Shown piece by piece: positions 10,627-39,703 of a stretch of DNA of 39,703 nt. The position numbers and the translations under genes are program-made. The DNA comes from a virus (lineage: Duplodnaviria; Caudoviricetes): positions 1-39,703 of IMG/VR virus record IMGVR_UViG_3300030450_003652. One strand, given 5' to 3'. Each line of letters opens with the position of its first letter. Positions within the stretch are counted from its first letter, which is position 1. The notes under the pieces are model-generated. The model was not told the origin of the DNA. It saw only the letters and a program-made list of their open reading frames with translations, and did not search any database.

Positions 10627-12863
10627 TGTATAAACAAACGTTATATAAGGTTCTAACCGATCATTTATCTAATAAAACAGTAAAGAATTGGAATAGACAT
10701 AAAAAATTTACTCAGGGCTATAATGAAGACTTAGATTGTGTTATAATTAGTAAAGATGGTACATTAGGAGAAATATATGAGATTCAAGGTCTTAAGGTAG
10801 GATTACCTCAAACTCCAAAAATTATTGATGGTAAAGATTTAAAAAAATCTGATCAATATTTTAAAAAATTGGAAAAACCACAATCTCTTAAAAGAATAAA
10901 AACAATATATGATTTTCAAAGTTATCCAGAAAAAATTAAAGATCAATATTATGAATATATTGATAGGGAGTTTAATTATAGGAATGACGGGTATTGGTTC
11001 ATGTGCAACGGCGAACCATGTTACATTACAGGATCGCACTATATCTATCTCAACTGGACCAAAATCGACGTGGGATCACCGGACTTTAGACAAGCAAATA
11101 GAATTTTTTTCTACTTTTGGGAAGCGTGCAAATTGGATAGAAGATGTTACGGAATGTGCTATCTTAAGAATAGACGGTCTGGCTTTAGCTTCATGGCATC
11201 AGCTGAATGTGTCAACCAGGCTACAACTTCAAAGGATTCTAGGTTTGGGATCTTATCTAAGACTGGAGCAGATGCTAAGAAGATGTTCACAGATAAGGTT
11301 GTACCGATCTCAACTAATTATCCCTTTTTCTTTAAGCCAATACAAGATGGTATGGAAAGACCCAAAACGGAATTATCCTATAAAGTTCCCTCGAGAAGAC
11401 TCACGAGAAACACCATTAAATTTACCTCCGCGGGAGAAGCCGAGGAGATACAAGAAGGATTGGATACAACCATCGATTGGAAAAATACCGGGGACAACTC
11501 GTACGATGGGGAGAAGTTACAACTCCTCGTTCATGACGAATCGGGTAAATGGGAACGTCCCGACAATATCCTCAACAACTGGAGGGTCACAAAAACGTGC
11601 CTCAGGCTCGGATCCAAAATAGTTGGTAAATGCATGATGGGATCCACTTCTAATGCTTTAGAAAAAGGAGGGGATAATTTTAAAAAACTTTATTATAATT
11701 CAGATGTCACAAATAGAAATCGCAATGGCCAGACTACAAGTGGATTATATGCTTTGTTCATACCTATGGAGTGGGGATTCGAAGGGTTTATCGATAAGTA
11801 TGGGTTCCCTGTATTCAATACACCACCAAAACCGGTTGAGGGAATTGATGGTGAATACATCTCTACGGGAGTCATTGACCACTGGGAAAACGAAGTTGAA
11901 GGTTTAAAAAAAGACTCAGATGCTTTAAATGAATATTATAGGCAATTTCCAAGATCGGAAAAACATGCATTTAGAGATGAGACTTTTAATTCTTTGTTCA
12001 ATTTAACTAAAATTTATGAACAAATTGATTTTAATGAAGAAATGACTAAAAAAGGTCATATAGTTAAAGGAAATTTTGGCTGGAGGAATGGTATAAAAGA
12101 TAGTAAAGTAATTTGGCAACCAAATATTAAAGGAAGATTTTTACTTTCTTGGATACCACCAGATAATTTACAAAACAATATAATAAATAAAAATGGTATA
12201 AGCTATCCGGGTAATGATGGATTAGGAGCATTTGGATGTGACCCTTATGATATTTCAGGAACAGTAGGTGGAGGTGGTTCTAAAGGGGCTTTACATGGAT
12301 TAACAACATTTTCAATGGACCCTAGTGTGCCCAGTACTAAATTCTTTTTAGAATATATAGCAAGACCGCAAACTGCAGAAATATTTTTTGAAGATGTATT
12401 AATGGCATGTGTATTTTACGGAATGCCATTATTAGCAGAAAACAATAAACCTAGATTGTTGTATCATTTTAAAAGAAGAGGTTATAGGGGATTTTCAATG
12501 AATCGCCCTGACAAATTAAGATCTAAATTGTCAAAAACCGAATTAGAATTAGGGGGTATACCAAATACCTCAGAAGATATAAAACAAGCTCATGCGGCAG
12601 CAATAGAATCTTACATAGAAGAATATGTAGGTAAAATAAGAGAAAATCATGGTAATATGTTTTTCCAAAGAACATTAGAAGATTGGGCTAGATTTGATAT
12701 AAATCGAAGAACAGCTCACGATGCATCTATTAGTAGCGGTTTAGCACTAATGGCTTGCAGAAAACATATGTATAGACCAAATATAGAAAGAACAGTAAAA
12801 AAACTTGATTTTATGTTTTCACACTATAATAATGAAGGATCAAGAAGTCAGTTAATAAAATAA
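10626..12863 (+). CDS. terL: Terminase large subunit
   Basis: Walker A-like LKNRRSGFS, Walker B LLVHDESGK, motif III MMGSTSN, RNase H-like GCDPYD and HDASISSG; precedes the portal. Confidence 0.92.
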   Translation: MYKQTLYKVLTDHLSNKTVKNWNRHKKFTQGYNEDLDCVIISKDGTLGEIYEIQGLKVGLPQTPKIIDGKDLKKSDQYFKKLEKPQSLKRIKTIYDFQSYPEKIKDQYYEYIDREFNYRNDGYWFMCNGEPCYITGSHYIYLNWTKIDVGSPDFRQANRIFFYFWEACKLDRRCYGMCYLKNRRSGFSFMASAECVNQATTSKDSRFGILSKTGADAKKMFTDKVVPISTNYPFFFKPIQDGMERPKTELSYKVPSRRLTRNTIKFTSAGEAEEIQEGLDTTIDWKNTGDNSYDGEKLQLLVHDESGKWERPDNILNNWRVTKTCLRLGSKIVGKCMMGSTSNALEKGGDNFKKLYYNSDVTNRNRNGQTTSGLYALFIPMEWGFEGFIDKYGFPVFNTPPKPVEGIDGEYISTGVIDHWENEVEGLKKDSDALNEYYRQFPRSEKHAFRDETFNSLFNLTKIYEQIDFNEEMTKKGHIVKGNFGWRNGIKDSKVIWQPNIKGRFLLSWIPPDNLQNNIINKNGISYPGNDGLGAFGCDPYDISGTVGGGGSKGALHGLTTFSMDPSVPSTKFFLEYIARPQTAEIFFEDVLMACVFYGMPLLAENNKPRLLYHFKRRGYRGFSMNRPDKLRSKLSKTELELGGIPNTSEDIKQAHAAAIESYIEEYVGKIRENHGNMFFQRTLEDWARFDINRRTAHDASISSGLALMACRKHMYRPNIERTVKKLDFMFSHYNNEGSRSQLIK
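10909..11622 (+). CDS. Candidate overprinted gene (+1 frame of terL), lipoprotein-like
   Basis: 237 stop-free codons in the +1 frame; basic N-region, hydrophobic stretch and IGS-C lipobox (Cys codon 11002-11004); terL synonymous codons turn C/G-ending across this span. Confidence 0.6.
   Translation: MIFKVIQKKLKINIMNILIGSLIIGMTGIGSCATANHVTLQDRTISISTGPKSTWDHRTLDKQIEFFSTFGKRANWIEDVTECAILRIDGLALASWHQLNVSTRLQLQRILGLGSYLRLEQMLRRCSQIRLYRSQLIIPFSLSQYKMVWKDPKRNYPIKFPREDSRETPLNLPPREKPRRYKKDWIQPSIGKIPGTTRTMGRSYNSSFMTNRVNGNVPTISSTTGGSQKRASGSDPK
11704..11907 (+). CDS. Second candidate overprinted ORF (+1 frame of terL)
   Basis: 67 aa; frame open from about 11663; GC-elevated synonymous sites at about 11760-11900. 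Confidence 0.35.
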   Translation: MSQIEIAMARLQVDYMLCSYLWSGDSKGLSISMGSLYSIHHQNRLRELMVNTSLRESLTTGKTKLKV

Positions 12864-12865
12864 AT

Positions 12866-15283: not shown

Positions 15284-15309
15284 AAAAAATTAATTTATTA
15301 TATTATATT

Positions 15310-16659
15310 ATGGAAGAACAACAAACAGAAATTAAAGAAGCTCCAGAAGCTAATGAACCTACACAATCTAAAGAAGCAATTGTATTAGAGGAAGCTGTTA
15401 AAAGCGGTGAGGTAGATAAGGCTTTTGGATTACAAGACGATGGTGTCTATAAAATAAATTTAGATAAGCCACCCACGGAGGTTAAAAAGGAACCTAAAGC
15501 TAAAACAAAAAAAGCAGAACCTAAAGTAGAAAAAGATGCCGTTCAAAAACAAGAAACAAAGGATAGCAATGTGCCTATCGAAAAATCCGAAGACTCGCCA
15601 AGTGTGCAAAAATTGGATAAAGAAATACGGGGATCCGCTAAGGAAGAAAAAGAAACCGTTAAAACCGAGGAAAAAGTATTAGATAAAACAAATGAACCTA
15701 ATACTAATAGTAGTGTTCCAGATTCACCACTTGAATTAATAGCTGAAGAGGAACCTAAAAAAAATGTAAAAACGGAAGAAAAAGAAAAAGAAACTCCAAT
15801 TTTACAAGAAAAAGAAATTAAGGAAGAAAAGGTAGTTCTTCCAGAAAATGTTGATAAACTAGTTAAATTTTTAGAAGATACAGGGGGAACAATTGAAGAT
15901 TATGTAAATTTAAATAGAGATGTTTCTAAAATGGATAATATTAGTTTATTAAGAGAATACTATTCAAAAACAAAACCTCATTTAGATGCAGAAGATATTG
16001 ATTTTTTATTTAATAAAAATTTTGCATATGATGGGGAAGCGGATGATCCGCAAGATATAAAAGCTAAGAAATTAGCTTTTAAAGAGGAATTATTTAATGC
16101 TCAAAATTATTTCACTTCTAATAAGGAAAAGTATTATGCTGATCTTAAGTTAAGAAAGCAAGATACTTTAACACCTGAACAAAATGAAGCAATAGAGTTT
16201 TATAATAATTACAAACAGCAACAACAGGGAGCTGAGGAAAAAGCAAACAATTTTAAAAAGGAAACAGATAAAGTTTTTAACGATAATTTCAAAGGTTTTG
16301 ATTTTAAGGTCGGAGAAAACAAATACCGTTATAAAGTTGAAAATCCTCAAAAAGTTAAAGAATTTCAATCTTCTATTAATAATTGGATAGGGACTCATTT
16401 AGATAATAAAGGTATTATAAAAGATACTGCTTTTTATCATAAATCTTTATTTGCTGCACAAAACGCAGATAAAATAGCTAATCACTTTTATGAGCAAGGC
16501 CGTGCTGATGCTATTAGAGAAAGTGCTAAACAAGCTAAAAATATAAAAATGGACCCTAGATCAGATAATGCCACTGTGCCAAAAACTAATACTTCTGGCA
16601 TACGTGCTGTTTCATCCAATGATGACAATCCCAACAAGTTGCGAATTAAATGGAAATAA
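15310..16659 (+). CDS. Putative capsid scaffolding protein
   Basis: 449 aa, very E/K-rich N-half; TGGTIEDYVNLNRD, IANHFYEQGRADA; lies between portal and major capsid genes. Confidence 0.7.
   Translation: MEEQQTEIKEAPEANEPTQSKEAIVLEEAVKSGEVDKAFGLQDDGVYKINLDKPPTEVKKEPKAKTKKAEPKVEKDAVQKQETKDSNVPIEKSEDSPSVQKLDKEIRGSAKEEKETVKTEEKVLDKTNEPNTNSSVPDSPLELIAEEEPKKNVKTEEKEKETPILQEKEIKEEKVVLPENVDKLVKFLEDTGGTIEDYVNLNRDVSKMDNISLLREYYSKTKPHLDAEDIDFLFNKNFAYDGEADDPQDIKAKKLAFKEELFNAQNYFTSNKEKYYADLKLRKQDTLTPEQNEAIEFYNNYKQQQQGAEEKANNFKKETDKVFNDNFKGFDFKVGENKYRYKVENPQKVKEFQSSINNWIGTHLDNKGIIKDTAFYHKSLFAAQNADKIANHFYEQGRADAIRESAKQAKNIKMDPRSDNATVPKTNTSGIRAVSSNDDNPNKLRIKWK
15536..15682 (+). CDS. Candidate overprinted small basic protein (+1 frame of scaffold gene)
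   Basis: Hand translation MPFKNKKQRIAMCLSKNPKTRQVCKNWIKKYGDPLRKKKKPLKPRKKY* (48 aa); A-rich leader; CpG-rich island limited to this span; resembles recalled MPFKS-x-x-QRR...P...W-x-K-x-Y phage peptides. Confidence 0.6.
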   Translation: MPFKNKKQRIAMCLSKNPKTRQVCKNWIKKYGDPLRKKKKPLKPRKKY

Positions 16660-16682
16660 TAACAACTTAAAATCAAAACAAC

Positions 16683-18194: not shown

Positions 18195-18207
18195 TTTTTT
18201 TATTAAT

Positions 18208-18246
18208 AGAATACAGGCCCTTCGGGGCCTAGTGTTCTTATTTTAT
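18208..18246 (+). terminator. Intrinsic terminator / stabilising hairpin after the capsid gene
   Basis: agaatac-aggccc-TTCG-gggcct-a-gtgttct, cUUCGg tetraloop, followed by T-rich tattttat. Confidence 0.8.
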
Positions 18247-20807: not shown

Positions 20808-23800
20808 ATGCCAGTAATTAAAAGAACATTTAATGGCGGTGGTATGAACCGTGATTTAGATGATAGACTAGTACCTCCGGGACAATACCGAGAAGCACTA
20901 AATGTTAATATAGGCAAATCGGAAAGTGCTGATATGGGCGCTGTAGAAAATATTTTAGGAAATGAATTGATTGGGGATATAAATACAGCAGGAGCTAAAT
21001 GTATAGGTGTATTTAGAGATAGTTTTACAGAAAGACTATATTTCTTTACAACTACTAATAATAGCACTGATAAAACAAATACAGGTACTCATGCTATATA
21101 CGAGTTTAGTCAAATAAATAATCAATTAAGAACATTAGTTACTAGAAGCGATTTAAACTTCCATCAAGATTTTCCAATTAATGGTATAAATTTAGTAGAT
21201 AATTTATTATTTTGGACTGATAATAGAAATTGTCCAAGAAAAATTAACGTTGAAAAAGCTAGGAATGATGCGGCATATTATACTAATTTAACATCATTAG
21301 ATGACGTGGCATCAGTTGCTAAGTTTGCGCCTTATGATTCACCTACTGTATTAAGTATTGGAACAACAGACGAACAAGGGCAAACTATTACATCTAACTT
21401 TTTAGAAAACAAAATGATTAGGTTTTCATATAGATGGAAATTTGAAGATGGAGAATATAGTTTATTAGCCCCATTTACCACTACAATGTTTTCAAGGTTA
21501 AATAATACTGATACTATTACTACAACAACTGGTGATTTTGGGGAAATAGAAACTTTTATTAATGCAATTAAAGCTGTTCAATTACAAGTTCCTACACCTA
21601 CTGGATATGGTATTACAGAAGCTGAATTAGTTTATAAAGAAACAGGATCTAGTACTTTATATGTAGTTGAAAGCCAACCGGTTACTACAACAACAGATTT
21701 TGTTAACTTTTTTTATGAATCTCAAGATCCATTTAAAACACTTCCGCCTGATCAATTAACAAGAGTATATGACGCAGTACCTAGGGTGGCTAAAACTCAA
21801 GAATTAGCAGGAGGGAGAATAGTATATGGTAATTTTTTACAAAATTATAATGTTCCAGATATAAGTTTTAATGTAACAAGGACAGGAGAAGCCGCGGCTA
21901 GGAATGCGCGAATACCTTATTTATCAGTTAAATCACGAAGAACATATCAAATAGGTATTGTATTAGCAGATAAGTTTGGAAGACAAACGCCAGTTATATT
22001 GTCAAATACAGGAGGAGATTCTATCTATGTAGACCCAAAGATCGGTGATGCTAATACTACTGACGCATTCAATGCTTTAAGAATTGCTTTTTCACAAGAT
22101 CAAATAAACGCATTACAAGCTTTAGATTGGGCTTATTCTTATAGGGTAGTTATAAAACAAAGAGAACAAGAATATTATAATTGGATATCATTAGTTACTG
22201 GTCAAGATACAGTGGCAAGGCTGGGTGATAGCATAAATAAAATACCAAGGGATCAAGATGCAGTAATACCACCTAGCACAGGAACTTCAATATCACCATG
22301 TGATGTATCTGTCTTTCCTAAATATTTAAATGCTACCAATCAAACTGGATCCAATTCTACAATAGTACAATCTATTGCAAATCCTGCGGGAACAGCATTG
22401 GTTTCTACAGGCGCTGTTACTTCTGGGTTATGTGTTTATGAAACAACTCCGGTAGAATCAGATTTAGATATATTTTATGAGACAGCTACTAGTGGGTTAA
22501 TTAGTGATTTAACCACAACAGCTATAAACATAGATTTTTTTAATTGTTATCTATTAACAATAAATCCAGCAGCAGGAGCGTATGCGGGTACACATATAGA
22601 AGTAAATAGATTACGAGCAGGCTATAATGAAACGGCTTTTGATTATGGGGTTAGAGCTTATGTGGTGCAAGAAAATTTTGCTGAAGAATTACGATTTAAT
22701 ACTTTAATACATTCTAGTGGTTTATTTAACTCAAGAACTGGTATTAATTATATAAATCAATTTAATGAATCTGAAGGAGGATTAACAGTATCACTAGACC
22801 CACGAAATGGATCAATACAGAAGTTACATGCCACTGATACTTCTATTAATATTTTTCAAGAGGATAAAGTTTCTTTTTCACCAATTAATAAAGACTTTAT
22901 TTATTCCGCAGAAGGAGGAAATATTCCTGTAACTAGTAATACACAATTTTTAGGGACTATAGCTCCTATTAATGGAGAATATGGAATTTCTTTAAATCCT
23001 GAATCATTTGCACATTATGGACTTGCACAGTATTTTGCAGACAAAAATAATGGTGTAATATTAAGGCTAGCAGGAAATCAAATAACCGAAATTTCAAAAA
23101 ATGGAATGGCAGATTTTTTCAGAGATGCTTTAAGAAGTGCTTCTTCGGCGGTGGGATGTTATGATGAATATCATGCTCAATACACTATTACTTTCATTGG
23201 TGAATGTTATGATAGTAATGAAGATACAAATGTAGCTACTGCTTCTAGTAATTATTTAACATTATCATTTGATGAATCATTAGGTGCTTGGAGTACTTTT
23301 AAATCTTATAATCCTGAAAGAGCAATAAGTCTTAATAATACATTTTATTCTTTTAATAATGGCAATTTATGGCAACATAATTCATCTGATGTAATTAGAA
23401 ATAGTTTTTATGGAGCTAGCGCTCAAGAATCTTTTATTGTTCCAATATTTAATGATGATCCATCAACAATAAAAACTTTTAATAATATACAATATGAAGG
23501 AACTGATGGTTGGGAAATAGAATATATAGAAACTGATATAAGTTCTTTAGGTACTGTGCCAACAGAAACTACCTCTTATAATACTACTTTAAAATTTTCT
23601 GGAAATGGGCCCAATAGCGTCGTTACTGGAGAAAGTTCAATTTGTGCTAAAGCAAATCAGGCAGTTCAATGGATAGCTACTTTTAGTCCTATTAGTTCCG
23701 ACTATCAATTTACAGCTACTAATGATATAATATTGACGCCTCCAACAGGAGTAAGTATTATTAATCCTACGTCTATAACCGACGGAAATTTAGTATTTGT

Positions 23801-28662: not shown

Positions 28663-31600
28663 ATGTTTGAATGGAATGGGCAACAGTTCACTTTAGATCA
28701 AGTATTAAAATCTGCAGAAGAAGCAGGCCTTAGCTTTGAGGAATATAAGGAAAAATATGGTATAATTGAGGTTGAAGATAAAGAACCAGTTTCTGATTTT
28801 CAATATAATGGTAAATCTTTTACTTTTGATCAAGTAGACAATGCCGCAAAGGAGGCCAACTTGAGTTTTAATGACTATGTACAAACATATGGCATCGAAA
28901 CACCTAAAGAGGTTGAAGTTGTTGGAGAAAGATATCCTAAAGCAAAAGAAGAATCCAAAGTTCCATATGCTCCTCAAGAGGAAATTGTTGGGCCTAGCAC
29001 TCAATCACGAGAGTGGTTGGAACAACAACAAACAGATCTTTTAGATTACGAAGAAAATCTTATTCCTGAAGCAGAAGAATTATTTTCGCCTGATTGGGTT
29101 GAAGATAATCAAGTATATGTGCCTAGCACAGGACCAGTTGCTATTGGGGGAATAGCTGCTAATACAACCGGGGGCGGGGTCTATATAGATCCAGTGAACA
29201 AGGGAAGAACTGAAGCAATTGAAGAGGCTAAAAAATTATTAAATGAACAAAATGGCGGAACAAATTTAGTAGAACCATCTGAAGAAGAAATTTTAGAAAC
29301 TGCTAAAAATATTTGGCTTAATAAAAAACAAGAAAATCTAGAGGTTGATTTTGCAGATCATTATTTACGTAAAAATGCAGCACTTGATTGGGGTGATTTA
29401 AAAACATATGCTTCTATAGCTTCTCCATACATAATGCCCACTTTAAATCCTGAAATGAAAGCATTTAAAGAAAGGCAAGCTACTCTTGCTAAAGGAGATA
29501 AAAAATTTGCGCAAGAAAAAGTACAAAAAAATAAATTAGATCTTAATAAACTAAGCACTAAAGTAAAAACTAATGAATTACAAGCTATTAATTTAGCTCA
29601 AGGTGATTATAAAACCCAAGAAGACTTCGACGAAGCCAAAAAACAACTTGCAAATATAGCTTTAGAAAACGAAGCTATTATTAAAAAAAGTGAATATATT
29701 TTTGATGATTTAAAAGCTAATTCTAAAGAAATAGGTAAATATGATGAATATCTTGATGTAATAAAAAGAGATTATAGTTTTTCAGGTATAGCTTTAGGGT
29801 CGCTTACTGCATCTACTATAGAATTAGTTAATGGAGGGTTAGCTATTCCGAGATATTTAAAAACTGCTGCGGATAATTTAGCAAGAGGAATTACTGACAA
29901 TAAATATGATATGCCAGATTGGGTGTTTGCTTTAGCTGGCCCCGCTTTTAATCTTTTAGCTAGTGAGGAAACTAAAGATGTTAATGATTTCTTGGATAAT
30001 GTTTCTGAAAATATTAGGGGTACTTTTGCAAAAAATCAAGAGGTAACAGACATAGATAGCCTAGGTGGTGTTGCAAGTTGGATAGCGCAATTAATTGGTA
30101 ATCAAGCTCCAATAATGGCAACTATGATGTCTATGCCTACATATTCTTTAACAGCGTTAGGGGCTTCAGCTGCAGGTGGTAAATTTCTAGAAATGGAAAA
30201 AGAAATGGGTTTACCGGGCGGGCCAACTTATAGTGGTCTTGAATTGTTATTAGCTCCAGCTATAGTAGGGGGAGCTGAATATCTTTCAGAAAAAATAACC
30301 TTAGGGCAGGTGAAAGGCGTAATGAAGGCTGTTAAAGGCGATCAATCTATTATTGAGGCAGTAAAAAGATATCTTACAAATGATTACCTTAGGTGGACTA
30401 AAGACATGTTCCAAGAAGGTGGTTCAGAAGTTGCGGCAACTTTAGCTGAAAACATGACTGATAAGTATCTATTAGACAAAGATGTTGAATTAACTAGAGG
30501 GCTAGCTGATTCCTTTGCAAGTGGTGCTGTAATGAGTGGATTTATATATAAAGCCCCATTGGCTGGGAGAGCTTTAAGTAAAGTATTTTGGGGTGAAGAT
30601 GTAAGAAATCAAATTCAAACTGGTAATCAATTAATTAAAGAGTTAAATAATGAACTTAATAATGATAATTTAACGGAAACTGAAAGAAAAGACATCTTAA
30701 ATAATATTGCTGAAATCGATGCTAAGCAAAAGAAGATAATGCGAAATGCTAATGAAAGCTTTGATAATGCTACTACTACAGAGAAAAAAAGGCTTTTTAA
30801 AATATATGATTTACAAAATAACATTAAGAGAAGGGCTATAAAAATAGCTAATAACACTAAGCTTAGTGAAAAAAATAGAAAAAAAATGATTGATATCCAG
30901 CAAAGAAAATGGGATGGCTATCAAGATGAAAAAAATTCTATATTAATAAGATTAAGCGAAAAGAATTTTGATCCTCAAACTTTTTCAATAGAAGAGTATG
31001 AAAATAATGTTACTAAAGGGAAAATGGGTCGTAATGAATATATAGACAAACAAATCCAAACATTATCTAATACTTTATTAAATTTACAAGAGCGTAGAAA
31101 AAAAGCTACTACTGCTGAAGAAATAAAATTATTAGATTTAAAAATAAAAAATGTTCAAAATAAAATAAAATATTTAGTACCTGAAAAATCAGGATTTTTT
31201 AGCATTATCCCAACAACTATAAGGAAAGCTAACTCTATAAAAGAATTAAATGAAGCTTTTATTACTAAGTCTGCTGAATTAAGTGATGCATTAAAATCTA
31301 AAAAAATAACACCAACTGAGTATAATAAACAATACAAAAGACTTAAAAATAGTTTTGATAAAAAAAGAAATAGTTTTATAGAAAAAGTTGATAAAACTAA
31401 AGGCGAATATACTGAATTACAAAAATTATATGATTCAACTATAGACAAAGAAGGGAAATTACCTACAACGCAAAGAGGCCAAAATAAATTTGTTAATGAA
31501 TTTAATAAAATTGCAGCACCAATTTTTGAAAAAATAGCTCAAAGATTATATGATAGAACATCTAAAGATAAAGTTGGAGGTTTAACAAGAAAAAATTTTA

Positions 31601-34600
31601 TTAAAGGTTTACAATCTGAAGCTTGGAAAATTTTAGAAGAGGAGTTTGATCCTAGTTTACAAACTTTAGATAAATTTATTAGCAATAGATTAAATTTAAG
31701 AGCTAATAGATTATTTGGCGAGGATACAGGCAGAAATGATGAATTTACAGAAGAGTTAACTGATAAAATTTCTCAAACAATTGTTGAAGAAATTGAGGAA
31801 GAAAATGAAGGAAATAAAATAATAGAAACTAGTAAGCTTTTAAATTTACCTAAAAATATAACTAAAAAACTTAAAGCTAGTATTCCTACTATCTTATCTA
31901 CTTTAAAAAGTAAAATTGATTCTAGAAAATTTAAAGGAGAAATAAGCAAGGCTTTTAAAGATTTGTTATATGGAGATCTAAAAGAATTTTTTGGTAAAGA
32001 TAAAAAAGGAAATAAGAGATTTACAGATTTTATAACTAAAAATACTAAAGCTTTATATGATACACTAACAGAAGAAAGCATGAGAATGGCCCGTAATAAT
32101 AAGACCGGGGTAAATCCTTTTGTTGAAGCTGGATTTTTAATTGAAAAAGATGGTGAATTAGTAAAAGCTGCTTTTGAAAATATTGATCAACAAGCATTCA
32201 TAGATTATTATACTGCTAAAGATAAAGCAGCAAATACTATGTCTGATCGTAGAATGAATTTAATAGAAGCTGTAGCCTCCTCTATTGGGTCTGCAGAAGC
32301 AATAAATGCATTAGCTACAGATGCTGATATTAAAAATAAATTTTTAGAACAACAAACCAAAGAACTTGAAAAAGCTGCTAAAGGTTTAAGTTTATTAGAA
32401 TCATATGCTCGTAATATATTCCAAAAAATTACTAAAAAAATTGAAAAAGAATTTGCTAGATATGGGTTTACCCGTTGGAGTACTTTAGCGTTAACGTATG
32501 GATTTAACGATATTAATTTAAATAATGCTAAGGAGAGAGAAGCTTTTTTAGAAAATTTAGTTAAAACAGGATTAACTAAATTATTACCAGCTAGTTTATT
32601 TAGAAGTTTTCAAGGTGTTAGTAAACCTAAAATATTTATAGAATCTGACGGATTAAAATACGTAAAAAACCTTGATGGGGAATTGTTATTAAAAAAGACA
32701 TATGAAACCCTTTCAAAAAAACAAAAAAAAGAGCAAGGTTTTGGTAATATAGAAAGAGACCATGACAGGCATGTATTTTTTAAAAACGCCGCCGAAGCTG
32801 ATGCTTGGATTAAAGAGGTGGGAATAGAAAATTTTGCCAAAGATCCTATTATTGATAAAGCATTAAAGAAAAGCGCTTATACTAGTAAAATAAAGGGGAA
32901 AACTGTTCTTACAAAAGTAAATTGGAAAGAAGAAGATAATAAATTAGTGGCATTAGAAAAAATATTTGATATTTTTCAAGAGTACATGCTTGACAATGGT
33001 AAAGTAAATAAAAAGAACGCTTCTATAGTATCTGCTTTGTTAAAATCTTCTCCATCGTGGCAAGGGCATTTTGTTAGAAAACTAGCTCCAAGAGGATTTA
33101 CTAATTCAAGTAAATTATTAGATGATTTAGGAAATAGACTATTTGTAGAAGAACATACTTTACCCGCTTCTGCTGTAGCTAAATATCTATTTGAGCAAGC
33201 TATTAATGGAACAGTAAAAAATAATTTTGATTTAATCAAAAAAAATTATTTTCAAGGGCCTTTATTAAAGACATCTGATGATAAATTATCTGGAATTGGT
33301 GTTGATGGAAAACCTTTTACATATAAAGAGTCTACACCATCTGGTTGGATGTTAACAGATAATATTTGGGCTAGATATTTTAATGCTAATGTAAATAATA
33401 CGCGTGGTGGTATAGATCCCAATGTTATTATTTTAAGAAACGGTAAAACTGTTGCCCAAGAATTTAATGTTCAATCTGATGGAACTATAACGCCCGATGT
33501 TAAACAATTGCAACAAGAAGGTATCGCTGAACAAACAGGGGACCAAGTAGAAAATTTACTTGATAGGGCTATAGCTAAATTAACTGAGCTTACAGGTTCA
33601 CAAGGCACATTACAAATGAATTTAGCTGCTGTTCCTATCCATTTATTAACAGGTGGATTAAGAGCCGTTAAATTGGCATATCAAGGAGGGAAAAGCTTAA
33701 GTCAAGCTATTAGTGCAGGATATAATAAAGTAAAAAATTATATGACTGAAACAGAATGGGCTGAATTTGTTGGTGTTTCTGTTCAAGAAGTAAGAAATGA
33801 AAAAAATCCTGCTCAAGTTAAATTGGCCATTCTTTCAGAAAAAGGTGTTGCTCAAATTCAGGAACAATCAAGAAAAACTGATAATGCTTTATTAAAAGAG
33901 TTTGGAATTGATATTGACGGATTAAGTACTGATGAAATTGTTGAAAAATTAAATATACTTAGGAAAGCTAAAAGCGAAGCTTCAAATCCAAAAAATCCAA
34001 CTAAGAAGGCTAGAGTATTTGATTTTGACGACACGCTGGCTAAAACTAATTCTAAGGTACTTTACACGCTCCCAGATGGAACGGAAGGTAATTTAAATGC
34101 TACAGAGTTCGCGGAACAATACGAGTCCTTAAAAGAATCCGGTGCAACTTTTGATTATTCTGAGTTTAATAAAGTAAAAGACGGCACTAAAGGTCCATTA
34201 GCTACATTAGCTAAAAGATTTACGGAGGCATTAGGTGATAGAGATGTATTTGTATTAACAGCACGCCCAGCGGAAGCAGCGGCAGCTATACAAGAATTTT
34301 TACGAAATACTTTAAATATTAGTATTCCACTAAAAAATATATCTGGAATAGAAAATGGAACTCCCGGCGCTAAAGCTATGTGGATTGCTGAAAAAGTTTC
34401 AGAAGGTTATAATGACGTTTTCTTTGCCGATGATTCCAAACCTAATGTTGAAGCTGTTGAAAAAATGTTAACCGATTTAGGTGTAACAAATAGAGTTCAA
34501 CAAGCTAAAGAAGATGGCCAGAAAACTTTAGAAGACGAAATGGATTCTTTGATTAGAACTAATAAACCTTCTAAGTTTGGTAGAATATTAAATAAATTAA

Positions 34601-36816
34601 ATATTTATATTCCGCCTGGAGCTGATGATTTTGCTGGTTTATTATCTTATTTTTTAGGCAGCGGTAAAACAGGCGAACAACAACAAAAATGGTTCCAAGA
34701 AAATTTATTAGATCCATTTGCTAAGGGGATTGACGCATGGACTGCAGCAAAAGTTTCATTAGCTGAAGATTATAAAGCATTAAAGAAAAGATTTAAAAAT
34801 AAAAAATTATTAGCCGAAAAGGTTTTAGGAGGATTATATACTAAAGAGCAAGCTGTTAGAGCTTATCTATATAATAAAGCTGGACAAGATTTAGGTTTAA
34901 ATAAAGCTGATACCGAAGATCTAATAGCTTTAGTTGAGGGCGATGCTAAACTTAAAGCTTTTGCTGAAGAATTATCTAAAATAACTAAATTAGATAATGG
35001 ATATCCTAATATTACTAAAGAATGGTTGGGCGGTAATATTGATACAGATATGGCTAATGCTGCCAACACATCTTTAAGAGATATATTTTTACAAGATTTT
35101 ATAAATAATAAAAATCAGATTTTTTCTCCACAAAATTTAAAATTAATAAAACAAGCATATGGTAATGATTTTACTAATGCATTGGAAAATATTTTAGAAA
35201 GAATGACTACGGGTATAAACCGTAAAAAGGGAAAAGATAAAGAATTTAATGCGGTAATGACCTGGATTAATCAATCCGTTGGTGCAGTGATGGCTATTAA
35301 TATGAGATCGGCAATTCTTCAGCAGTTATCTATTGTAAACTATACTAATTGGAGTTTTAATAATCCATTTATGATGGCAAAAGCAATGGCTAATGTTCCT
35401 CAATTTTTAAAAGATTATGTTAAAATATGGAACTCCCCATTTTTAAAAGAAAGAAGAGGGGGAATGGCTATTGAAGTCAATATGGCAGATATAGCAGATT
35501 CAAATCCAAGTAATTTATTCTTAAAATTAAATAAAAAACTACTTGAGTTAGGATTTAAGCCTACACAATGGGGTGATAGCAATGCTATATCCTTTGGAGG
35601 AGCTACTTGGTATAGAAACAGATTAAATCAATTACTTAAAGAAGGTACGATGACTGAGAAAGAAGCAGATGCTCAAGTTATGTTAGAGCTTCGTGAACTT
35701 TCTGAAGAGCACCAGCAATCTTCTAGACCAGATAGAATATCTAGACAACAATCCTCAGATATAGGTAGATTGATATTAGCTTTTGCTAACACGCCTTTAC
35801 AGCTTGCTAGATCGCATAAAAAAGCTATAGGTAATCTTATTTATAGAAGAGGCGATGCTAAAACAAATATGTCTAAAGCTATTTATTATGGAATGGCACA
35901 AAGTTTAATATTTGTAGCATTACAACAAGGATTATTTTCTTTATTAGCTGATGATGATGATGAAATGGATGAAAAAGAAAAAAGAAAGCTAGATTATGCT
36001 CTTCATGGTGTTATAGATGGTTTGCTTAGAGGGATAGGATTTGCAGGAGCAACAACTGCAGCTCTTAAAAGTTTGGCTATGGAATATTATTCCCAATATC
36101 AAAAAAGAAAAGAAGGTAAATATGTAAGAGATGGTGCTCTAAAATTGATTCAAAGAGGTCTTTCAATTTCGCCTCCACTTAGTAAAAAGATTGGGGATAT
36201 TGTTGAAGCACAAAAGTTTGAAACATGGAGACAATATAAAAACGATCCTTTTTATAAAGGATTTGCTGTAGCTAATTATGTATCAGGGTTAACAAATATA
36301 CCCGCAGACAGGGTATTTAAAAAGATTGAAAATTTGAAAGCTGCGTCTGATGACAGAACCGAAGCATGGCAATCTATATTTTTATCATTAGGATGGTCAC
36401 CTTATAATGTAGGCGTACAATGGCCTGAAATGCCTCCTAAGAAAACTAAGAAAAAAAGTACTACATCAAAGAAAAAAGTTAAAAAGAAAAAAGTAAAAAA
36501 GAAAAAAAGCCCTATAAAAATGGAATTACCTGAAGGAGTTTTAGGTAGAGCTAATAAAGACGGCACTATTGAAATTAAAAAAGGACTATCTAAAGAAAAA
36601 GAAGCGGAAGTAGAGGCCCATGAAAATGCCCATTTGCTTCAGTTCCAAACTGGGAAATTAGATTATAATGATGAATATATTAGATGGAAAAATCAACAAG
36701 CTTTAAGAACAGCTGATCGTAAAATCTTTTGGAATGGTAAATTATATAAAGAAGGGGATAGGGCTTTACCTTGGGAAATAGAAGCCAATAAATTAAGTAA
36801 ACAACGAACTGTATAA
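28663..36816 (+). CDS. Giant multidomain (polyvalent) internal virion protein with HAD phosphatase and C-terminal zincin domains
   Basis: 2717 aa; VFDFDDTL / VLTARP / K / FFADD HAD motifs (about 34003-34500); HENAH...LPWEIEAN zincin (36520-36816); hydrophobic Gly/Ala helices; duplicated N-terminal repeat. Confidence 0.7.
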   Translation: MFEWNGQQFTLDQVLKSAEEAGLSFEEYKEKYGIIEVEDKEPVSDFQYNGKSFTFDQVDNAAKEANLSFNDYVQTYGIETPKEVEVVGERYPKAKEESKVPYAPQEEIVGPSTQSREWLEQQQTDLLDYEENLIPEAEELFSPDWVEDNQVYVPSTGPVAIGGIAANTTGGGVYIDPVNKGRTEAIEEAKKLLNEQNGGTNLVEPSEEEILETAKNIWLNKKQENLEVDFADHYLRKNAALDWGDLKTYASIASPYIMPTLNPEMKAFKERQATLAKGDKKFAQEKVQKNKLDLNKLSTKVKTNELQAINLAQGDYKTQEDFDEAKKQLANIALENEAIIKKSEYIFDDLKANSKEIGKYDEYLDVIKRDYSFSGIALGSLTASTIELVNGGLAIPRYLKTAADNLARGITDNKYDMPDWVFALAGPAFNLLASEETKDVNDFLDNVSENIRGTFAKNQEVTDIDSLGGVASWIAQLIGNQAPIMATMMSMPTYSLTALGASAAGGKFLEMEKEMGLPGGPTYSGLELLLAPAIVGGAEYLSEKITLGQVKGVMKAVKGDQSIIEAVKRYLTNDYLRWTKDMFQEGGSEVAATLAENMTDKYLLDKDVELTRGLADSFASGAVMSGFIYKAPLAGRALSKVFWGEDVRNQIQTGNQLIKELNNELNNDNLTETERKDILNNIAEIDAKQKKIMRNANESFDNATTTEKKRLFKIYDLQNNIKRRAIKIANNTKLSEKNRKKMIDIQQRKWDGYQDEKNSILIRLSEKNFDPQTFSIEEYENNVTKGKMGRNEYIDKQIQTLSNTLLNLQERRKKATTAEEIKLLDLKIKNVQNKIKYLVPEKSGFFSIIPTTIRKANSIKELNEAFITKSAELSDALKSKKITPTEYNKQYKRLKNSFDKKRNSFIEKVDKTKGEYTELQKLYDSTIDKEGKLPTTQRGQNKFVNEFNKIAAPIFEKIAQRLYDRTSKDKVGGLTRKNFIKGLQSEAWKILEEEFDPSLQTLDKFISNRLNLRANRLFGEDTGRNDEFTEELTDKISQTIVEEIEEENEGNKIIETSKLLNLPKNITKKLKASIPTILSTLKSKIDSRKFKGEISKAFKDLLYGDLKEFFGKDKKGNKRFTDFITKNTKALYDTLTEESMRMARNNKTGVNPFVEAGFLIEKDGELVKAAFENIDQQAFIDYYTAKDKAANTMSDRRMNLIEAVASSIGSAEAINALATDADIKNKFLEQQTKELEKAAKGLSLLESYARNIFQKITKKIEKEFARYGFTRWSTLALTYGFNDINLNNAKEREAFLENLVKTGLTKLLPASLFRSFQGVSKPKIFIESDGLKYVKNLDGELLLKKTYETLSKKQKKEQGFGNIERDHDRHVFFKNAAEADAWIKEVGIENFAKDPIIDKALKKSAYTSKIKGKTVLTKVNWKEEDNKLVALEKIFDIFQEYMLDNGKVNKKNASIVSALLKSSPSWQGHFVRKLAPRGFTNSSKLLDDLGNRLFVEEHTLPASAVAKYLFEQAINGTVKNNFDLIKKNYFQGPLLKTSDDKLSGIGVDGKPFTYKESTPSGWMLTDNIWARYFNANVNNTRGGIDPNVIILRNGKTVAQEFNVQSDGTITPDVKQLQQEGIAEQTGDQVENLLDRAIAKLTELTGSQGTLQMNLAAVPIHLLTGGLRAVKLAYQGGKSLSQAISAGYNKVKNYMTETEWAEFVGVSVQEVRNEKNPAQVKLAILSEKGVAQIQEQSRKTDNALLKEFGIDIDGLSTDEIVEKLNILRKAKSEASNPKNPTKKARVFDFDDTLAKTNSKVLYTLPDGTEGNLNATEFAEQYESLKESGATFDYSEFNKVKDGTKGPLATLAKRFTEALGDRDVFVLTARPAEAAAAIQEFLRNTLNISIPLKNISGIENGTPGAKAMWIAEKVSEGYNDVFFADDSKPNVEAVEKMLTDLGVTNRVQQAKEDGQKTLEDEMDSLIRTNKPSKFGRILNKLNIYIPPGADDFAGLLSYFLGSGKTGEQQQKWFQENLLDPFAKGIDAWTAAKVSLAEDYKALKKRFKNKKLLAEKVLGGLYTKEQAVRAYLYNKAGQDLGLNKADTEDLIALVEGDAKLKAFAEELSKITKLDNGYPNITKEWLGGNIDTDMANAANTSLRDIFLQDFINNKNQIFSPQNLKLIKQAYGNDFTNALENILERMTTGINRKKGKDKEFNAVMTWINQSVGAVMAINMRSAILQQLSIVNYTNWSFNNPFMMAKAMANVPQFLKDYVKIWNSPFLKERRGGMAIEVNMADIADSNPSNLFLKLNKKLLELGFKPTQWGDSNAISFGGATWYRNRLNQLLKEGTMTEKEADAQVMLELRELSEEHQQSSRPDRISRQQSSDIGRLILAFANTPLQLARSHKKAIGNLIYRRGDAKTNMSKAIYYGMAQSLIFVALQQGLFSLLADDDDEMDEKEKRKLDYALHGVIDGLLRGIGFAGATTAALKSLAMEYYSQYQKRKEGKYVRDGALKLIQRGLSISPPLSKKIGDIVEAQKFETWRQYKNDPFYKGFAVANYVSGLTNIPADRVFKKIENLKAASDDRTEAWQSIFLSLGWSPYNVGVQWPEMPPKKTKKKSTTSKKKVKKKKVKKKKSPIKMELPEGVLGRANKDGTIEIKKGLSKEKEAEVEAHENAHLLQFQTGKLDYNDEYIRWKNQQALRTADRKIFWNGKLYKEGDRALPWEIEANKLSKQRTV

Positions 36817-36829
36817 ATAAATATAAATT

Positions 36830-37405: not shown

Positions 37406-37450
37406 GGCATAATTAAAATAATTAATAACTATAAACACAAATAAACGACA

Positions 37451-37729
37451 ATGAGTGAACTTAGTGAAGACACTAAATTTCAAGTAAGCATTAAGACTCT
37501 AGCGGCAATTGGAGCTGGCATATTTGCATTAGTAGGTATGTATTTTGCGCTCCAGGCCGATATAGAAGAGGCTAAGCTCTTGCCCGAACCTCCGGTTTCG
37601 AGAACGGAATATGACCTTAAAGATGAATTAATTCGCGAATCTATAATGAATACAGAAGAAAAGGTTCAAGAAAATTCGCAAAAACTGGATAAAATAGATG
37701 AAAAATTATATGAAATAATTAAAAAATAA
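37451..37729 (+). CDS. Single-TM membrane protein with C-terminal coiled coil
   Basis: TLAAIGAGIFALVGMYFAL followed by the heptad-like EEKVQENSQKLDKIDEKLYEI. Confidence 0.65.
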   Translation: MSELSEDTKFQVSIKTLAAIGAGIFALVGMYFALQADIEEAKLLPEPPVSRTEYDLKDELIRESIMNTEEKVQENSQKLDKIDEKLYEIIKK

Positions 37730-37733
37730 TACA

Positions 37734-38078
37734 ATGAAATATATAATAACTTTAATTTTGTTTTTAATTGCCTATACTGGCTTTAGCCAAACTAAAGATA
37801 TCCAATTATTACAAATTAATTCAAGTTGGAATTTAAAAAATGATATTCCAAGAGGAGATTTACCTAGTAAATACATGGTACATAAGATACGAATAGATCA
37901 TGCTACCATAGAACATCAAGGCCCTAACTTTAAAGAAAGTTTTGCTGGTAAACCTTTACCTATATTAATTTTATATGTAGATGGTAAAATAAAATATCAA
38001 TGGACTGCAGACTTATCTTTTAAATTAAAAGTATCTAAAGGTGAAATTTTAGATGTTATAGAAAAAGTGCTTAAATAA
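37734..38078 (+). CDS. Secreted protein, degenerate thioredoxin-like fold
   Basis: Signal peptide MKYIITLILFLIAYTGFS-Q; QINSSWN and LPILILYVDGK resemble Trx-fold motifs but there is no CxxC. Confidence 0.5.
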   Translation: MKYIITLILFLIAYTGFSQTKDIQLLQINSSWNLKNDIPRGDLPSKYMVHKIRIDHATIEHQGPNFKESFAGKPLPILILYVDGKIKYQWTADLSFKLKVSKGEILDVIEKVLK

Positions 38079-38079
38079 T

Positions 38080-38148
38080 ATGGAGTTTGCATTATACATA
38101 ACCTGTTTAGTTTTAATGTGCTTATTTATTATTCGTAGGGTAAAATAA
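38080..38148 (+). CDS. 22-aa single-TM micropeptide
   Basis: Hand translation MEFALYITCLVLMCLFIIRRVK*; ATG 1 nt after the upstream stop; fills the gap up to the terminator. Confidence 0.55.
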   Translation: MEFALYITCLVLMCLFIIRRVK

Positions 38149-38186
38149 AAAAAAGGGTAGCCAAATTAATGGTTACCCTTTTATTA
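38147..38186. terminator. Bidirectional intrinsic terminator
   Basis: aaaagggtagcca-aattaa-tggttaccctttt flanked by A- and T-tracts, between convergent operons. Confidence 0.85.
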
Positions 38187-38187
38187 T

Positions 38188-38400
38188 TTAAAATATTAAT
38201 CCTATAAGAATTCCAACTATTGGTCCAACTATAGACCAAATTTCTAAAAATTTTATTCTACCTAACTCTTTTTGAGTAAAAACATTATCAGAGGTATCTA
38301 AAATAAGATTACCTGCTTTCTTTTTAGTTTCATTTAATTGGTTTTCTAAATCTTTAATTTTTTGTTTTGCATCTGCAAACGTAAATCTTTTTTTTGCCAT
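38188..38400 (-). CDS. Small C-terminally anchored membrane protein
   Basis: 70 aa; N-terminal coiled coil and C-terminal IWSIVGPIVGILIGLIF. Confidence 0.65.
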   Translation of the reverse strand: MAKKRFTFADAKQKIKDLENQLNETKKKAGNLILDTSDNVFTQKELGRIKFLEIWSIVGPIVGILIGLIF

Positions 38401-38420
38401 ATTTGTTTATTTATTATTAA

Positions 38421-39703
38421 TTACCCATCGCACGATAAACAATCAGGATTCATTGCATTAGCTGCAATATCACCTCTCAATACAGATTCAGTACGCATAT
38501 AATAAAGTGTTTTTATACCATGTTTCCATGCTTCTATATGTATTTGATTTATCCATCTCGGGGTTGCTTCAGCAGGAAATGCTAAGTTAAGACTAACAGA
38601 TTGATCTATATAGTCTTGCCTTATTCCAGCTTGATTAACCAATTCTAATTGATTAATTTCTTTAAATGTTTTAAAAACATTTTTTACAGGCTCTCCATTT
38701 TCATGATTCTTTGTTAATTTCCCTTTATCAAAAAACCATCCATCAAGTTCATTTATATCTTGAACAGATCCACCATCTTTTAAAATTTTATCCCAAATTT
38801 CTGAAGTATCTATTTTAAGCCTTCTTAAAATTTTTTGTAATTCTTTATTCTTTCTTATAAAAGTTCCTTTAGCTGTTTGTTCAGTAAATACATTTGCAGC
38901 CCAAGGTTCAATCCCTGGAGATATATTTCCACTTAATTTACTATTTGATACAGTGGGCGCTATCGCTCTTAAATGTGTATTTCGCATTCCAGTACCCGCA
39001 CACCATAAAGGTTCACCATATGTATCCGCAAGAGCCCTAGAAGCACGTTCTGTTTCTATTTTAATCTTAGAAAATATTTCTCTAGTCTTAAATTGAGCTA
39101 AAAGCCCTTCAAAAGCAATTCCATTTTTTTGTAACAAAGTATGCCAACCTACAACACCTAATCCTAATGCTCTTCCTTTTTCAGCTGATCTTACAGAATT
39201 TTCAAATCCAACTCTTCCTTTGGCTTTATGTATAAATTCAGATAATACTCCATCTAAAAACCAAATAGAGTCATAAACAAGATTAGTATTTTTCCATTCA
39301 TCATATTTATCCAGATTAACTGAAGATAAACAGCAAACAAAACTATGTGTTTCATCTGTATGTAAAACTATTTCGCTACAGATGTTTGTCATATGTACTT
39401 TTAAACTGTTCGACTTATAAGCTTTTGGATTAGCCTTGTTTGTATTTCCTTTAAAGAGGATATACGGCTCGCCAGTAGCTTTACGCTTTTGGAGGAGTTT
39501 TCCCCATTTTTTTCTTGCTTCGGGATTTCCTGCTTCAAGTTTTCGCATAAACTTGTCACCAACGACAGCACACTGATGTAAGTTAAGAGATTGTCTATTG
39601 ACGTCCCCTTTAGGTTCTCTGATTTCCAACCATTCATCGAAATCAGCGTGCTCGATGTTGATATTAACGGATGCAGCCCCTCTACGTACTGATCCTTGAT
39701 TGG
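38421..39703 (-). CDS. nrdA: Ribonucleoside-diphosphate reductase class I alpha subunit (5' truncated by window edge)
   Basis: Frame open to the edge (NQGSVRRGAASVN...DEWLEIREPKG); TNICSEI, CCLSS, RALGLG, APTVSNS, DQSVSLN, KTLYY, C-terminal CLSC. Confidence 0.93.
   Translation of the reverse strand, partial: NQGSVRRGAASVNINIEHADFDEWLEIREPKGDVNRQSLNLHQCAVVGDKFMRKLEAGNPEARKKWGKLLQKRKATGEPYILFKGNTNKANPKAYKSNSLKVHMTNICSEIVLHTDETHSFVCCLSSVNLDKYDEWKNTNLVYDSIWFLDGVLSEFIHKAKGRVGFENSVRSAEKGRALGLGVVGWHTLLQKNGIAFEGLLAQFKTREIFSKIKIETERASRALADTYGEPLWCAGTGMRNTHLRAIAPTVSNSKLSGNISPGIEPWAANVFTEQTAKGTFIRKNKELQKILRRLKIDTSEIWDKILKDGGSVQDINELDGWFFDKGKLTKNHENGEPVKNVFKTFKEINQLELVNQAGIRQDYIDQSVSLNLAFPAEATPRWINQIHIEAWKHGIKTLYYMRTESVLRGDIAANAMNPDCLSCDG
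39401..39703 (-). CDS. Candidate overprinted ORF (+1 frame of nrdA), possibly 5' truncated
   Basis: 101 codons including the stop, open to the window edge; GC-elevated span; hydrophobic stretch followed by a coiled-coil-like segment. Confidence 0.4.
   Translation of the reverse strand, partial: PIKDQYVEGLHPLISTSSTLISMNGWKSENLKGTSIDNLLTYISVLSLVTSLCENLKQEIPKQEKNGENSSKSVKLLASRISSLKEIQTRLIQKLISRTV

Follow-up and report, generated by a model that had tools for sequence, protein, structure and literature searches.

We found that the +1 frames of three phage genes, encoding the terminase large subunit (terL), a putative scaffold and NrdA, are likely kept open by selection and would encode four small proteins translated from internal starts. 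This reading of the sequences draws on frame-specific stop avoidance across diverged homologues, third codon positions that suit the +1 product, conservation of the ATGs and a family of stand-alone peptides. The window, meaning the whole stretch of DNA analyzed, comprises 39,703 nt (positions 1–39,703 of IMG/VR record IMGVR_UViG_3300030450_003652; Duplodnaviria, Caudoviricetes) and belongs to a group of uncultured marine dsDNA phages with genomes of 60–70 kb that probably infect a flavobacterium. Its host genes are terL (10626..12863, plus strand, 745 aa; PHROG 6681, E = 7e-172), located ~1 kb downstream of holin and amidase genes (8771..9594, plus strand; PHROG 3427 and 822); nrdA (38421..39701, minus strand; PHROG 84, Pfam PF02867), which lost its 5' part at the contig end; and a gene at 15310..16659 (plus strand) without a match in PHROG and Pfam scans, considered a putative scaffold based on its position between the portal and a capsid-like gene and its composition (acidic N terminus). 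The four nested ORFs had no match in PHROG or Pfam, and no report of these nested genes was found in the titles and abstracts of the literature searched, which includes few subscription papers.

An earlier note had described four spans as open in the +1 frame on the host strand, and all four proved free of stops: terL ORF1 (10909..11622, plus strand), terL ORF2 (11704..11907, plus strand, open from 11662), a scaffold ORF (15536..15682, plus strand) and nrdA ORF-A (39401..39703, minus strand). The accompanying claim of a shift to C/G-ending codons was right in direction but overstated: GC3 was higher in each span, including ORF1 (0.44 vs 0.18 in the rest of terL), ORF2 (0.33 vs 0.26, where the comparison part of terL includes ORF1), the scaffold ORF (0.32 vs 0.15 elsewhere in the gene) and ORF-A (0.35 vs 0.14 elsewhere in the gene), but A/T endings were still the majority. 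Likewise, the claimed rarity of such long +1 frames applied to two of them. When synonymous codons were shuffled within each gene (5,000 runs), an equally long +1 run appeared in 0/5,000 permutations for ORF1 (240 codons) and 2/5,000 for the nrdA span, compared to P values of 0.14 (ORF2) and 0.88 (scaffold ORF); genome-wide, 14 +1 runs of at least 50 codons were seen versus 12.9 expected. In this genome, then, neither ORF2 nor the scaffold ORF is longer than chance would allow, and support for both comes from homologues.

One alternative is that the spans are GC-richer mosaic patches or products of chance, in which fewer A-ending codons leave fewer +1 stops and nothing is translated. This would account for the raised GC3 and for the two ORFs of chance length, but permutation within the ORF1 span, with local GC3 kept, still left 5.4 stops and never a stop-free span (0/5,000), and +2 stops there were undepleted (25 vs 20.4). 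In ORF1-positive terL, NTA before a purine was found at 1/432 sites within ORF1, a partly circular count, whereas NTA before a pyrimidine remained at 0.63–0.65. Together with a signal tuned at two positions and stand-alone homologues of the scaffold peptide (both below), these results make the mosaic or chance explanation highly improbable overall; for ORF1, ORF-A and the peptide, it was ruled out by the junction-specific test and homology. The homologue comparison named beforehand as a possible refutation failed to refute: relatives keep the frames open, and avoidance is limited to stop-forming junctions, with the caveat that homologues share ancestry and their counts are not independent. All four ORFs either exceed the codon null or stay open across diverged homologues (ORF2 and the peptide via homologues alone), and selection on the second frame was indicated by synonymous suppression, codon tuning or a start codon, although weakly for the ORF1 body. 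Every nested gene has been lost from some relatives. The +1 bias itself is the usual one for overprinting.

ORF1 (237 aa) is a predicted lipoprotein with a basic, unfolded body (pI 10.5) and a predicted signal-peptidase-II signal (10909..11004, plus strand; lipobox IGS-C, Cys32 at 11002–11004), and the 'envelope protein' of the earlier note fits it. A rule-based scan and codon tuning both supported the basic n-region, hydrophobic h-region and lipobox Cys of a bacterial lipoprotein. The frame was open for at least 130 codons in 51 of 80 terL homologues and closed in 20, most of the latter with flat GC3. Judging from codon usage, the predicted signal is built through synonymous codon choice, at two different positions: the hydrophobic stretch lies at host codons 113–128 in group A (clade A) and 129–145 in group B, and four-fold sites at both have A3 of 0.00–0.07 and T3 of 0.77–0.78 (0.00 and 0.78 in group A). 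Ser(-1) and Ala(+2) flank the group A lipobox Cys in 20/20 sequences, while the group B lipobox (T/S-C) is atypical and a second Cys is present in 26/28 group B sequences versus 2/19 ORF1-negatives. These groups leave out five homologues with split or inserted terL (L024, L025, L026, L059 and L060), and the terL tree was built from terL of at least 560 codons. Since the third position that is free to vary in the host would serve as the second position of the +1 codon, T-rich third positions could yield hydrophobic stretches, and the G/C rise may reflect selection favoring a hydrophilic body.

The body of ORF1 is weakly constrained (synonymous divergence 0.80–0.89 vs 0.90–0.94 in downstream flanks), its length ranges from about 90 to 240 codons among relatives, and its AlphaFold model was unusable, without a fold (pLDDT 38.6). 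A search of 1.84 billion proteins returned 150 matches, 13 of which were inspected and were terL +1 translations or frameshift chimeras, and ORF1 was absent from elemoA, phi13:2, phi38:1 and the Manatee Spring phage. With no stand-alone homologue in these comparisons and a distribution narrower than that of its host gene, ORF1 classifies as de novo.

With somewhat less than even confidence, we propose that ORF1 arose de novo as a late lipoprotein of the outer membrane and replaced a stand-alone u-spanin-like gene in disrupting that membrane. It lies some 1.3 kb behind the amidase, within a late packaging gene, and in relatives a u-spanin-like lipoprotein gene comes after the endolysin; the window has no lipoprotein gene after the amidase and no lipobox gene other than ORF1. 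Stand-alone u-spanin-like genes were present in 0/12 ORF1-positive and 3/5 ORF1-negative near-complete genomes, and at all 15 loci with both a u-spanin-like gene and terL codons 120–215 ORF1 was broken, including in a lineage nested inside group B. That no relative was seen to combine an intact ORF1 with a stand-alone u-spanin-like gene points to a possible part in lysis. Phylogeny confounds this contrast, however, because the three complete genomes with a u-spanin-like gene are distant from the window (TerL 59–63%). ORF1 has the predicted N-terminal lipoprotein signal of a u-spanin but not the C-terminal transmembrane (TM) anchor (residues 150–237, GRAVY -1.38), has a model too poor to give a view of the beta-rich periplasmic domain of u-spanins, showed no homology to the u-spanin-like family (probability 0.8%) and, with terL as host, is not placed inside or beside an i-spanin gene as an embedded o-spanin would be. 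A TM-bearing candidate (37451–37729) was found in only 7 of 22 genomes.

Llp of phage T5 and Cor are receptor-blocking or superinfection-exclusion lipoproteins, and ORF1 could be a real nested gene of that kind and not a lysis factor. The absence of a C-terminal TM and of a shown partner i-spanin, the dispensable C-terminal half and the existence of near-complete genomes that lack both ORF1 and a u-spanin-like gene (G034 and G067) are consistent with receptor blocking, which we regard as somewhat less likely given the late position close behind the amidase and the failure of ORF1 to co-occur with the lipoprotein located after the endolysin in relatives.

Several features of ORF1 have precedents. 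The phiX174 lysis gene E lies in the +1 frame of D, which encodes a scaffold. The E product is described as a de novo membrane protein with a hydrophobic segment that, like that of ORF1, arises because second codon positions in the new frame carry T (PMC8227390), but phiX174 is a 5-kb ssDNA phage under size pressure, in contrast to the dsDNA genomes here with several nested genes each. Levivirus sgl genes are reported as de novo lysis genes that, like ORF1, occupy the +1 frame of an essential enzyme (rep) and are gained or lost between relatives (Chamakura 2020, PMC7693330); by that account most lie in less conserved parts of Rep, whereas ORF1 overlies a stretch that is among the most conserved in TerL (amino acid difference 0.03–0.08 between close pairs at codons 141–260), and leviviruses are RNA phages whereas ORF1 is a predicted lipoprotein in a DNA phage. 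Lambda Rz1, an embedded o-spanin, is likewise described as a +1 lipoprotein overlooked by gene callers (Kongari 2018, PMC6139136), and the u-spanin T1 gp11 is given there a lipobox and C-terminal TM layout that is shared with the stand-alone gene that excludes ORF1; ORF1 differs from both in its terminase host, which is not an i-spanin, and in having no C-terminal TM and no shown partner. The disruptin phiKT gp28 is presented as a cationic outer-membrane disruptor in a spanin-less phage (bioRxiv 10.1101/515445) and by that description resembles ORF1, whose body is strongly cationic, but it is a 56-aa amphipathic peptide and thus shorter than ORF1, which also has a lipobox. Replacement of a spanin by ORF1, if real, would help to explain phages without an identifiable one (91 of 677 in the PMC6139136 survey).

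ORF2 (67 aa, soluble) is probably coding and may be a short soluble late protein. It was open in 70 of 80 terL homologues, has a conserved core (ARLQVDYxLCSYLW) and showed the strongest synonymous suppression among the spans (normalized divergence 0.55–0.63 vs 0.98 in ORF1-negative terL). This suppression, the chance length and a start that is not uniformly conserved (eight group B copies have no conserved ATG at host codon 367, and seven of the eight have no ATG before the core) would also fit a nucleotide-level element, such as a promoter, protein-binding site or RNA structure. Such an element is improbable for ORF2, since stop-forming junctions are avoided within it (0/108 vs 16/43, where 0/108 is NTA before a purine in ORF1-positive terL, a count that is not circular), shuffled sequences fold better than the region itself (z = +1.75) and an Rfam search returned no match.

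The nrdA ORF-A is represented by the last 100 of 120 aa, with its ATG beyond the contig end; 97 of the 100 residues are identical to those of relative L081. It was open in 54 of 80 homologues, and the AAT codon that gives the ATG was present in 53/53 versus 16/24 sequences (background 0.70). NTA preceded purines at 0/550 sites, a count circular by selection, versus 153/351 before pyrimidines, and synonymous divergence was 0.71–0.79 compared to 0.86–0.93 in the flanks, with an even profile close to 1.0 in nrdA genes that lack the ORF. A protein-level search gave 75 matches, mostly of 116–124 aa. The structure predicted by AlphaFold is a helical bundle (pLDDT 67), and fold searches of PDB and BFVD yielded generic helical bundles only, none at E ≤ 0.001. 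We tentatively suggest that ORF-A arose de novo and is a soluble, helical protein with an accessory part in the replication phase, host takeover being its likeliest task.

The scaffold-nested peptide (48 aa), by contrast with de novo origin, belongs to an old family with stand-alone members, judging by profile matches: an HMM of 39 stand-alone MPFKS copies found it at E = 8e-6, with the next best of 943 segments at 2.7. Among 120 loci with the MPFKS pattern, 62 were nested in a scaffold homologue and 45 were scored as stand-alone, of which three (L177, L184 and L265) run into the end of their locus and seem to be nested, leaving ~42/120 truly stand-alone. The window copy shares the N-terminal motif and conserved Pro and Trp of these small basic phage peptides, a family of no known function, but is nested in the scaffold +1 frame, where Glu codons GAA would be read as Lys AAG. 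It is more conserved than the host frame (0.65 vs 0.47, 99/105 pairs) and has 1,419 called homologues; 17 of 31 non-nested loci had a head, packaging, tail, lysis or GroES-like neighbor, in a scan leaving out 4/35 loci (24/106 listed proteins). MPFKS peptides weakly matched PHROG 1375, and the nearest named Atlas cluster was DUF3008 (0.85, a lead only); Streptomyces phages were among the weak matches. The profile gave only spurious repeat-protein matches against PDB sequences, and no match to the ribosome-rescue factor ArfA came up for 23 MPFKS members in Pfam at E ≤ 5 or PDB at E ≤ 10, with HMMER filters that drop weak matches. The earlier 'basic peptide' label fits, and we see an even chance that the peptide is associated with the head, probably binds DNA and is produced along with the scaffold.

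The hiding of genes that the earlier note called systematic extends further, to nrdB, primase-helicase, thyA and a MazG-like gene. Each of 21 related genomes carried 2–9 strong +1 runs compared to 0.3–0.5 expected, 101 of 105 of them in terL, nrdA, nrdB, primase, thyA or the MazG-like gene, and runs scoring at least 10 numbered 72 in +1 (0.8 expected) and 7 in +2 (1.4 expected); most control genomes lack several of these host genes. The +1 frames might instead be entered by programmed ribosomal frameshifting, yielding fusions to the host N terminus, as weak start contexts (A at -3 in only 5% of clade A ORF1 starts) and variable ORF2 starts could suggest. This is quite unlikely, since in most nested ORFs an ATG follows the preceding in-frame stop by only a few codons, the first ORF1 ATG where lost (L022 and L065) is replaced close by, and neither an N-terminal signal peptide nor a family that begins at Met1 would fit without a free N terminus. 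Internal initiation may instead follow from the host: an SD-like motif precedes 4% of 700 core starts, Flavobacterium initiation is described as Shine-Dalgarno-free (PMC6847099), and ribosomes that need no such site could start at an internal AUG in A-rich mRNA.

Nested genes of such length are considered rare among dsDNA phages, and overlaps in DNA viruses are given a median of ~16 nt (14 nt for +1 overlaps; PMC8903798), yet this clade appears to carry several per genome, discarded by annotation. We speculate that this abundant marine clade steadily breeds new genes inside its most conserved enzymes (as many as nine in the +1 frame of one genome, many of them membrane-bound). The one born in terL may have displaced an ancestral u-spanin and may disrupt the outer membrane with no anchor in the inner membrane, which would be a route to lysis that evolved from scratch and needs no spanin. 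Since relatives either carry or lack each gene, place the signal at one of two positions and show visible losses, they offer a natural series for gene birth, and synonymous sites and GC3 of the marker genes terL and nrdA are distorted in this clade. The sequencing runs that contain these sequences were marine DNA sets; one RNA run gave nine contigs, none across most of ORF1, and was uninformative on frame or translation. Gly-rich tail genes also had +1 runs of 68–72 codons (384–563 and 1563–1775), which are within the chance range and were set aside.

The nested +1 layer is real and broader than first claimed. The earlier note had proposed systematic +1 overprinting, which was borne out over a wider range of genes. 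Across 22 genomes (the window plus 21 selected via nrdA), 72 stop-free runs scoring at least 10 were found in the +1 frame versus 0.8 expected, compared to 7 in +2 (1.4 expected) and, for the three reverse frames, 6, 0 and 0. The 21 clade genomes each carried 2–9 runs scoring at least 8 (0.3–0.5 expected) versus 0–1 in nine control genomes or part-genomes, most of which lack several host genes, G036 and G067 serving best as controls. Nearly all runs (101/105) lay inside terL, nrdA, nrdB, primase-helicase, thyA and a MazG-like gene, together 53,413 of 300,904 codons, while the remaining genes held 4 versus 7.2 expected. A +1 preference is usual for internal overlaps (23 versus 1 in the counts of bioRxiv 10.1101/229690), and the layer, though itself new, is a form of overprinting already known in kind; the literature searched, largely at the level of titles and abstracts, yielded no report of these nested genes. 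In nrdB, primase-helicase, thyA and the MazG-like gene, which lie past the end of the window contig, conserved +1 ORFs occur in 14–20 of 18–21 genomes (G001–G038; L311–L388), most of which encode a predicted transmembrane (TM) segment and have an ATG close to where they begin.

In the window, the open +1 frame was confirmed for all four spans: ORF1 (10909–11622) and ORF2 (11704–11907) in terL, one in the putative scaffold gene (15536–15682) and ORF-A in nrdA (39401–39703, minus strand). The proposed shift of host codons to C/G endings held only in that G/C third positions are raised, as A/T endings are still the majority. Lengths beyond codon-permutation expectation were found for ORF1 and nrdA (matched in 0 and 2 of 5,000 within-gene permutations) but not for ORF2 (P = 0.14) or the scaffold ORF (P = 0.88); judged from the window genome alone, these two spans are ordinary. 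Comparison with relatives revealed frame-specific selection, codon tuning, conserved starts and peptide homology.

Among 80 IMG/VR terL homologues (61–86% identity), ORF1 was open for at least 130 codons in 51, open for 90–129 in 3, closed in 20 and uncovered in 6, with lengths varying from ~90 to 240 codons. Within ORF1, NTA frequency was 1/432 before purines, a partly circular figure, versus 333/509 before pyrimidines, compared to ~0.65 before either outside nested ORFs. Stops in +2 were not depleted; the depletion is junction-specific. T-rich codons are known to give hydrophobic +1 products (PMC8227390). In clade A (20 ORF1-positive sequences, the window among them), the hydrophobic stretch falls at host codons 113–128, where four-fold sites have A3 of 0.00 and T3 of 0.78, and is followed in 20/20 by Ser-Cys-Ala, for which the less common codons of Phe and Cys are required. 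The 28 sequences of group B are likewise tuned, but at host codons 129–145, and have a second Cys in 26/28 versus 2/19 ORF1-negative sequences. GC3 rises in ORF1 because T3 falls past the signal, where the +1 protein turns hydrophilic. The ORF1 body is weakly constrained (synonymous difference 0.80–0.89 of expected versus 0.90–0.94 downstream) and does not fold in an AlphaFold model (pLDDT 38.6).

In a terL tree of 68 rows (SH-aLRT support only, midpoint root), clade A was monophyletic; some negatives fell outside group B and others within it, those within being compatible with ORF1 losses. ORF1 was absent from the cultured relatives elemoA, phi13:2 and phi38:1 and from the Manatee Spring phage. 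The terL genes of G034, L438 and L447 have stops in the signal region with the remainder open, apparently recent losses; two of them, L438 and L447, also have the u-spanin-like gene discussed below. Searching 1.84 billion proteins with an ORF1 profile gave 150 matches, and all 13 inspected were terL +1 translations or chimeras. The presence of such ORF1 translations and TerL/ORF1 chimeras in protein libraries (P0121–P0270) shows that gene callers slip into the open +1 frame on fragmentary or error-bearing contigs.

ORF1-negative relatives, G036 among them, often encode a 141- to 160-aa lipoprotein with a C-terminal TM immediately after endolysin, the layout defined for u-spanins (PMC6139136). 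This gene was found in 0/12 ORF1-positive and 3/5 ORF1-negative near-complete genomes and in 0/109 ORF1-open loci, many of them too short to test, and ORF1 was broken in all 15 loci (12 distinct) holding both this gene and terL codons 120–215. One carrier lineage, L044, is nested inside group B. That the gene was never found alongside intact ORF1 favors a role in lysis, and we tentatively suggest that ORF1 disrupts the outer membrane. Against this role, ORF1 has neither a C-terminal anchor nor homology to the u-spanin-like family, both genes are missing from G034 and G067, and the lineages compared are few. Receptor blocking, which would suit the missing anchor and the genomes with neither gene, seems somewhat less probable given the same mutual exclusion. 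ORF1 belongs to neither the u-spanin nor the embedded o-spanin family. The u-spanin-like family itself (L370:10756–11199, L044:395–829, L431–L473) is unannotated, with a lipobox and C-terminal TM but without a PHROG name, and sits right behind endolysin in inspected loci.

ORF2 was open in 70/80 terL homologues, many of them ORF1-less, with a variable start position. Stop-forming NTA was found at 0/108 sites in ORF1-positive genes versus 16/43 in negatives, and synonymous difference fell to 0.55–0.63 versus 0.98. The region had no Rfam match and folded more poorly as RNA than shuffles.

ORF-A was open in 54/80 nrdA homologues, with a single ATG and 120–124 aa. The Asn codon yielding this ATG was AAT in 53/53 versus 16/24 ORF-less nrdA and 0.70 elsewhere, and synonymous difference was 0.71–0.79 versus 0.86–0.93 in flanks. 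Its AlphaFold model is a helical bundle (pLDDT 67) with no significant match in a fold search; 9 of its 75 homologues are chimeras with RNR domains. A second nrdA +1 ORF (codons ~289–444, ~155 aa; L124:3398–3862 and 13 other loci) occurs in 14/80 homologues, 12 of which also have ORF-A, and most copies end in a hydrophobic stretch of ~40 residues. The sole strong exception to the +1 rule is a Cys/Arg-rich, mostly ATG-started +2 ORF in nrdA (codons ~286–370, ~80 aa), present in 7/21 genomes (G003, G004, G008, G009, G012, G017 and G018).

The scaffold-nested basic peptide (MPFKS family) is the clearest coding case. A motif scan placed it in +1 at 27/80 loci, 25 of them among the 46 loci with a BLAST-detected scaffold gene. 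Its conservation exceeded that of the overlying frame (0.65 versus 0.47; higher in 99/105 pairs), and the family has 1,419 called homologues. Among 120 pattern matches, 62 were nested in the same scaffold gene, 1 lay in a different ORF, 3 overlapped an antisense ORF, 9 headed longer proteins and 45 scored as stand-alone, 3 of these being cut and probably nested. An HMM of 39 stand-alone copies matched the window peptide (E = 8e-6; next best 2.7), and 17/31 scanned non-nested loci neighbored head, packaging, tail, lysis or GroES-like genes versus 1 with a polymerase. The peptide is not of de novo origin; an older peptide gene probably came to underlie the acidic scaffold linker, an overlap that GAA (Glu) read as AAG (Lys) in +1 may have favored. 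Pfam and PDB searches gave no support for ArfA. As an N-terminus of longer proteins (L168, L180, L196, L201, L204, L212, L219, L239 and L240), including a NUDIX protein adjoining a portal gene, the motif may be a capsid-targeting tag.

All functions proposed for the nested ORFs are predictions. Translation would proceed by internal initiation, with ORF1 presumably lipidated; SD-free initiation is established in Flavobacterium (PMC6847099). Only 5% of clade A ORF1 starts have A at −3, and therefore ORF1 expression may be low. Nested genes probably reside in conserved enzymes because slow, indel-poor host genes would preserve a second frame while third positions are left free.

The window spans an entire virus contig of 39.7 kb. 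It has genes for tail proteins, holin, amidase, a GroES-like protein, TerL, portal, the putative scaffold and structural proteins, one of these a crAss-type muzzle; its nrdA, on the minus strand, is 5'-truncated. We infer a flavobacterial host because flavobacteria are the hosts of the closest cultured TerL relatives (elemoA, 44.5%; Cellulophaga phages, 36–37%) and because, in related genomes, SD-like motifs precede just 4% of the 700 core-gene starts examined. The best-matching public sequencing runs are marine. The window's late module is crAss-related: one gene matches the Crassvirus muzzle family (Pfam PF25731), and a 2,717-aa protein has no clear family (20808–24899 and 28663–36816). Three small envelope-type genes, each in 6–7 of 22 genomes, end the late operon (37451–38400): 37451–37729 (N-terminal TM, coiled-coil-like tail), 37734–38078 (Sec signal) and 38188–38400 (minus strand, C-terminal TM). 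Further small Lys/Arg-rich stand-alone proteins recur among relatives (families 38, 47, 49, 60 and 71).
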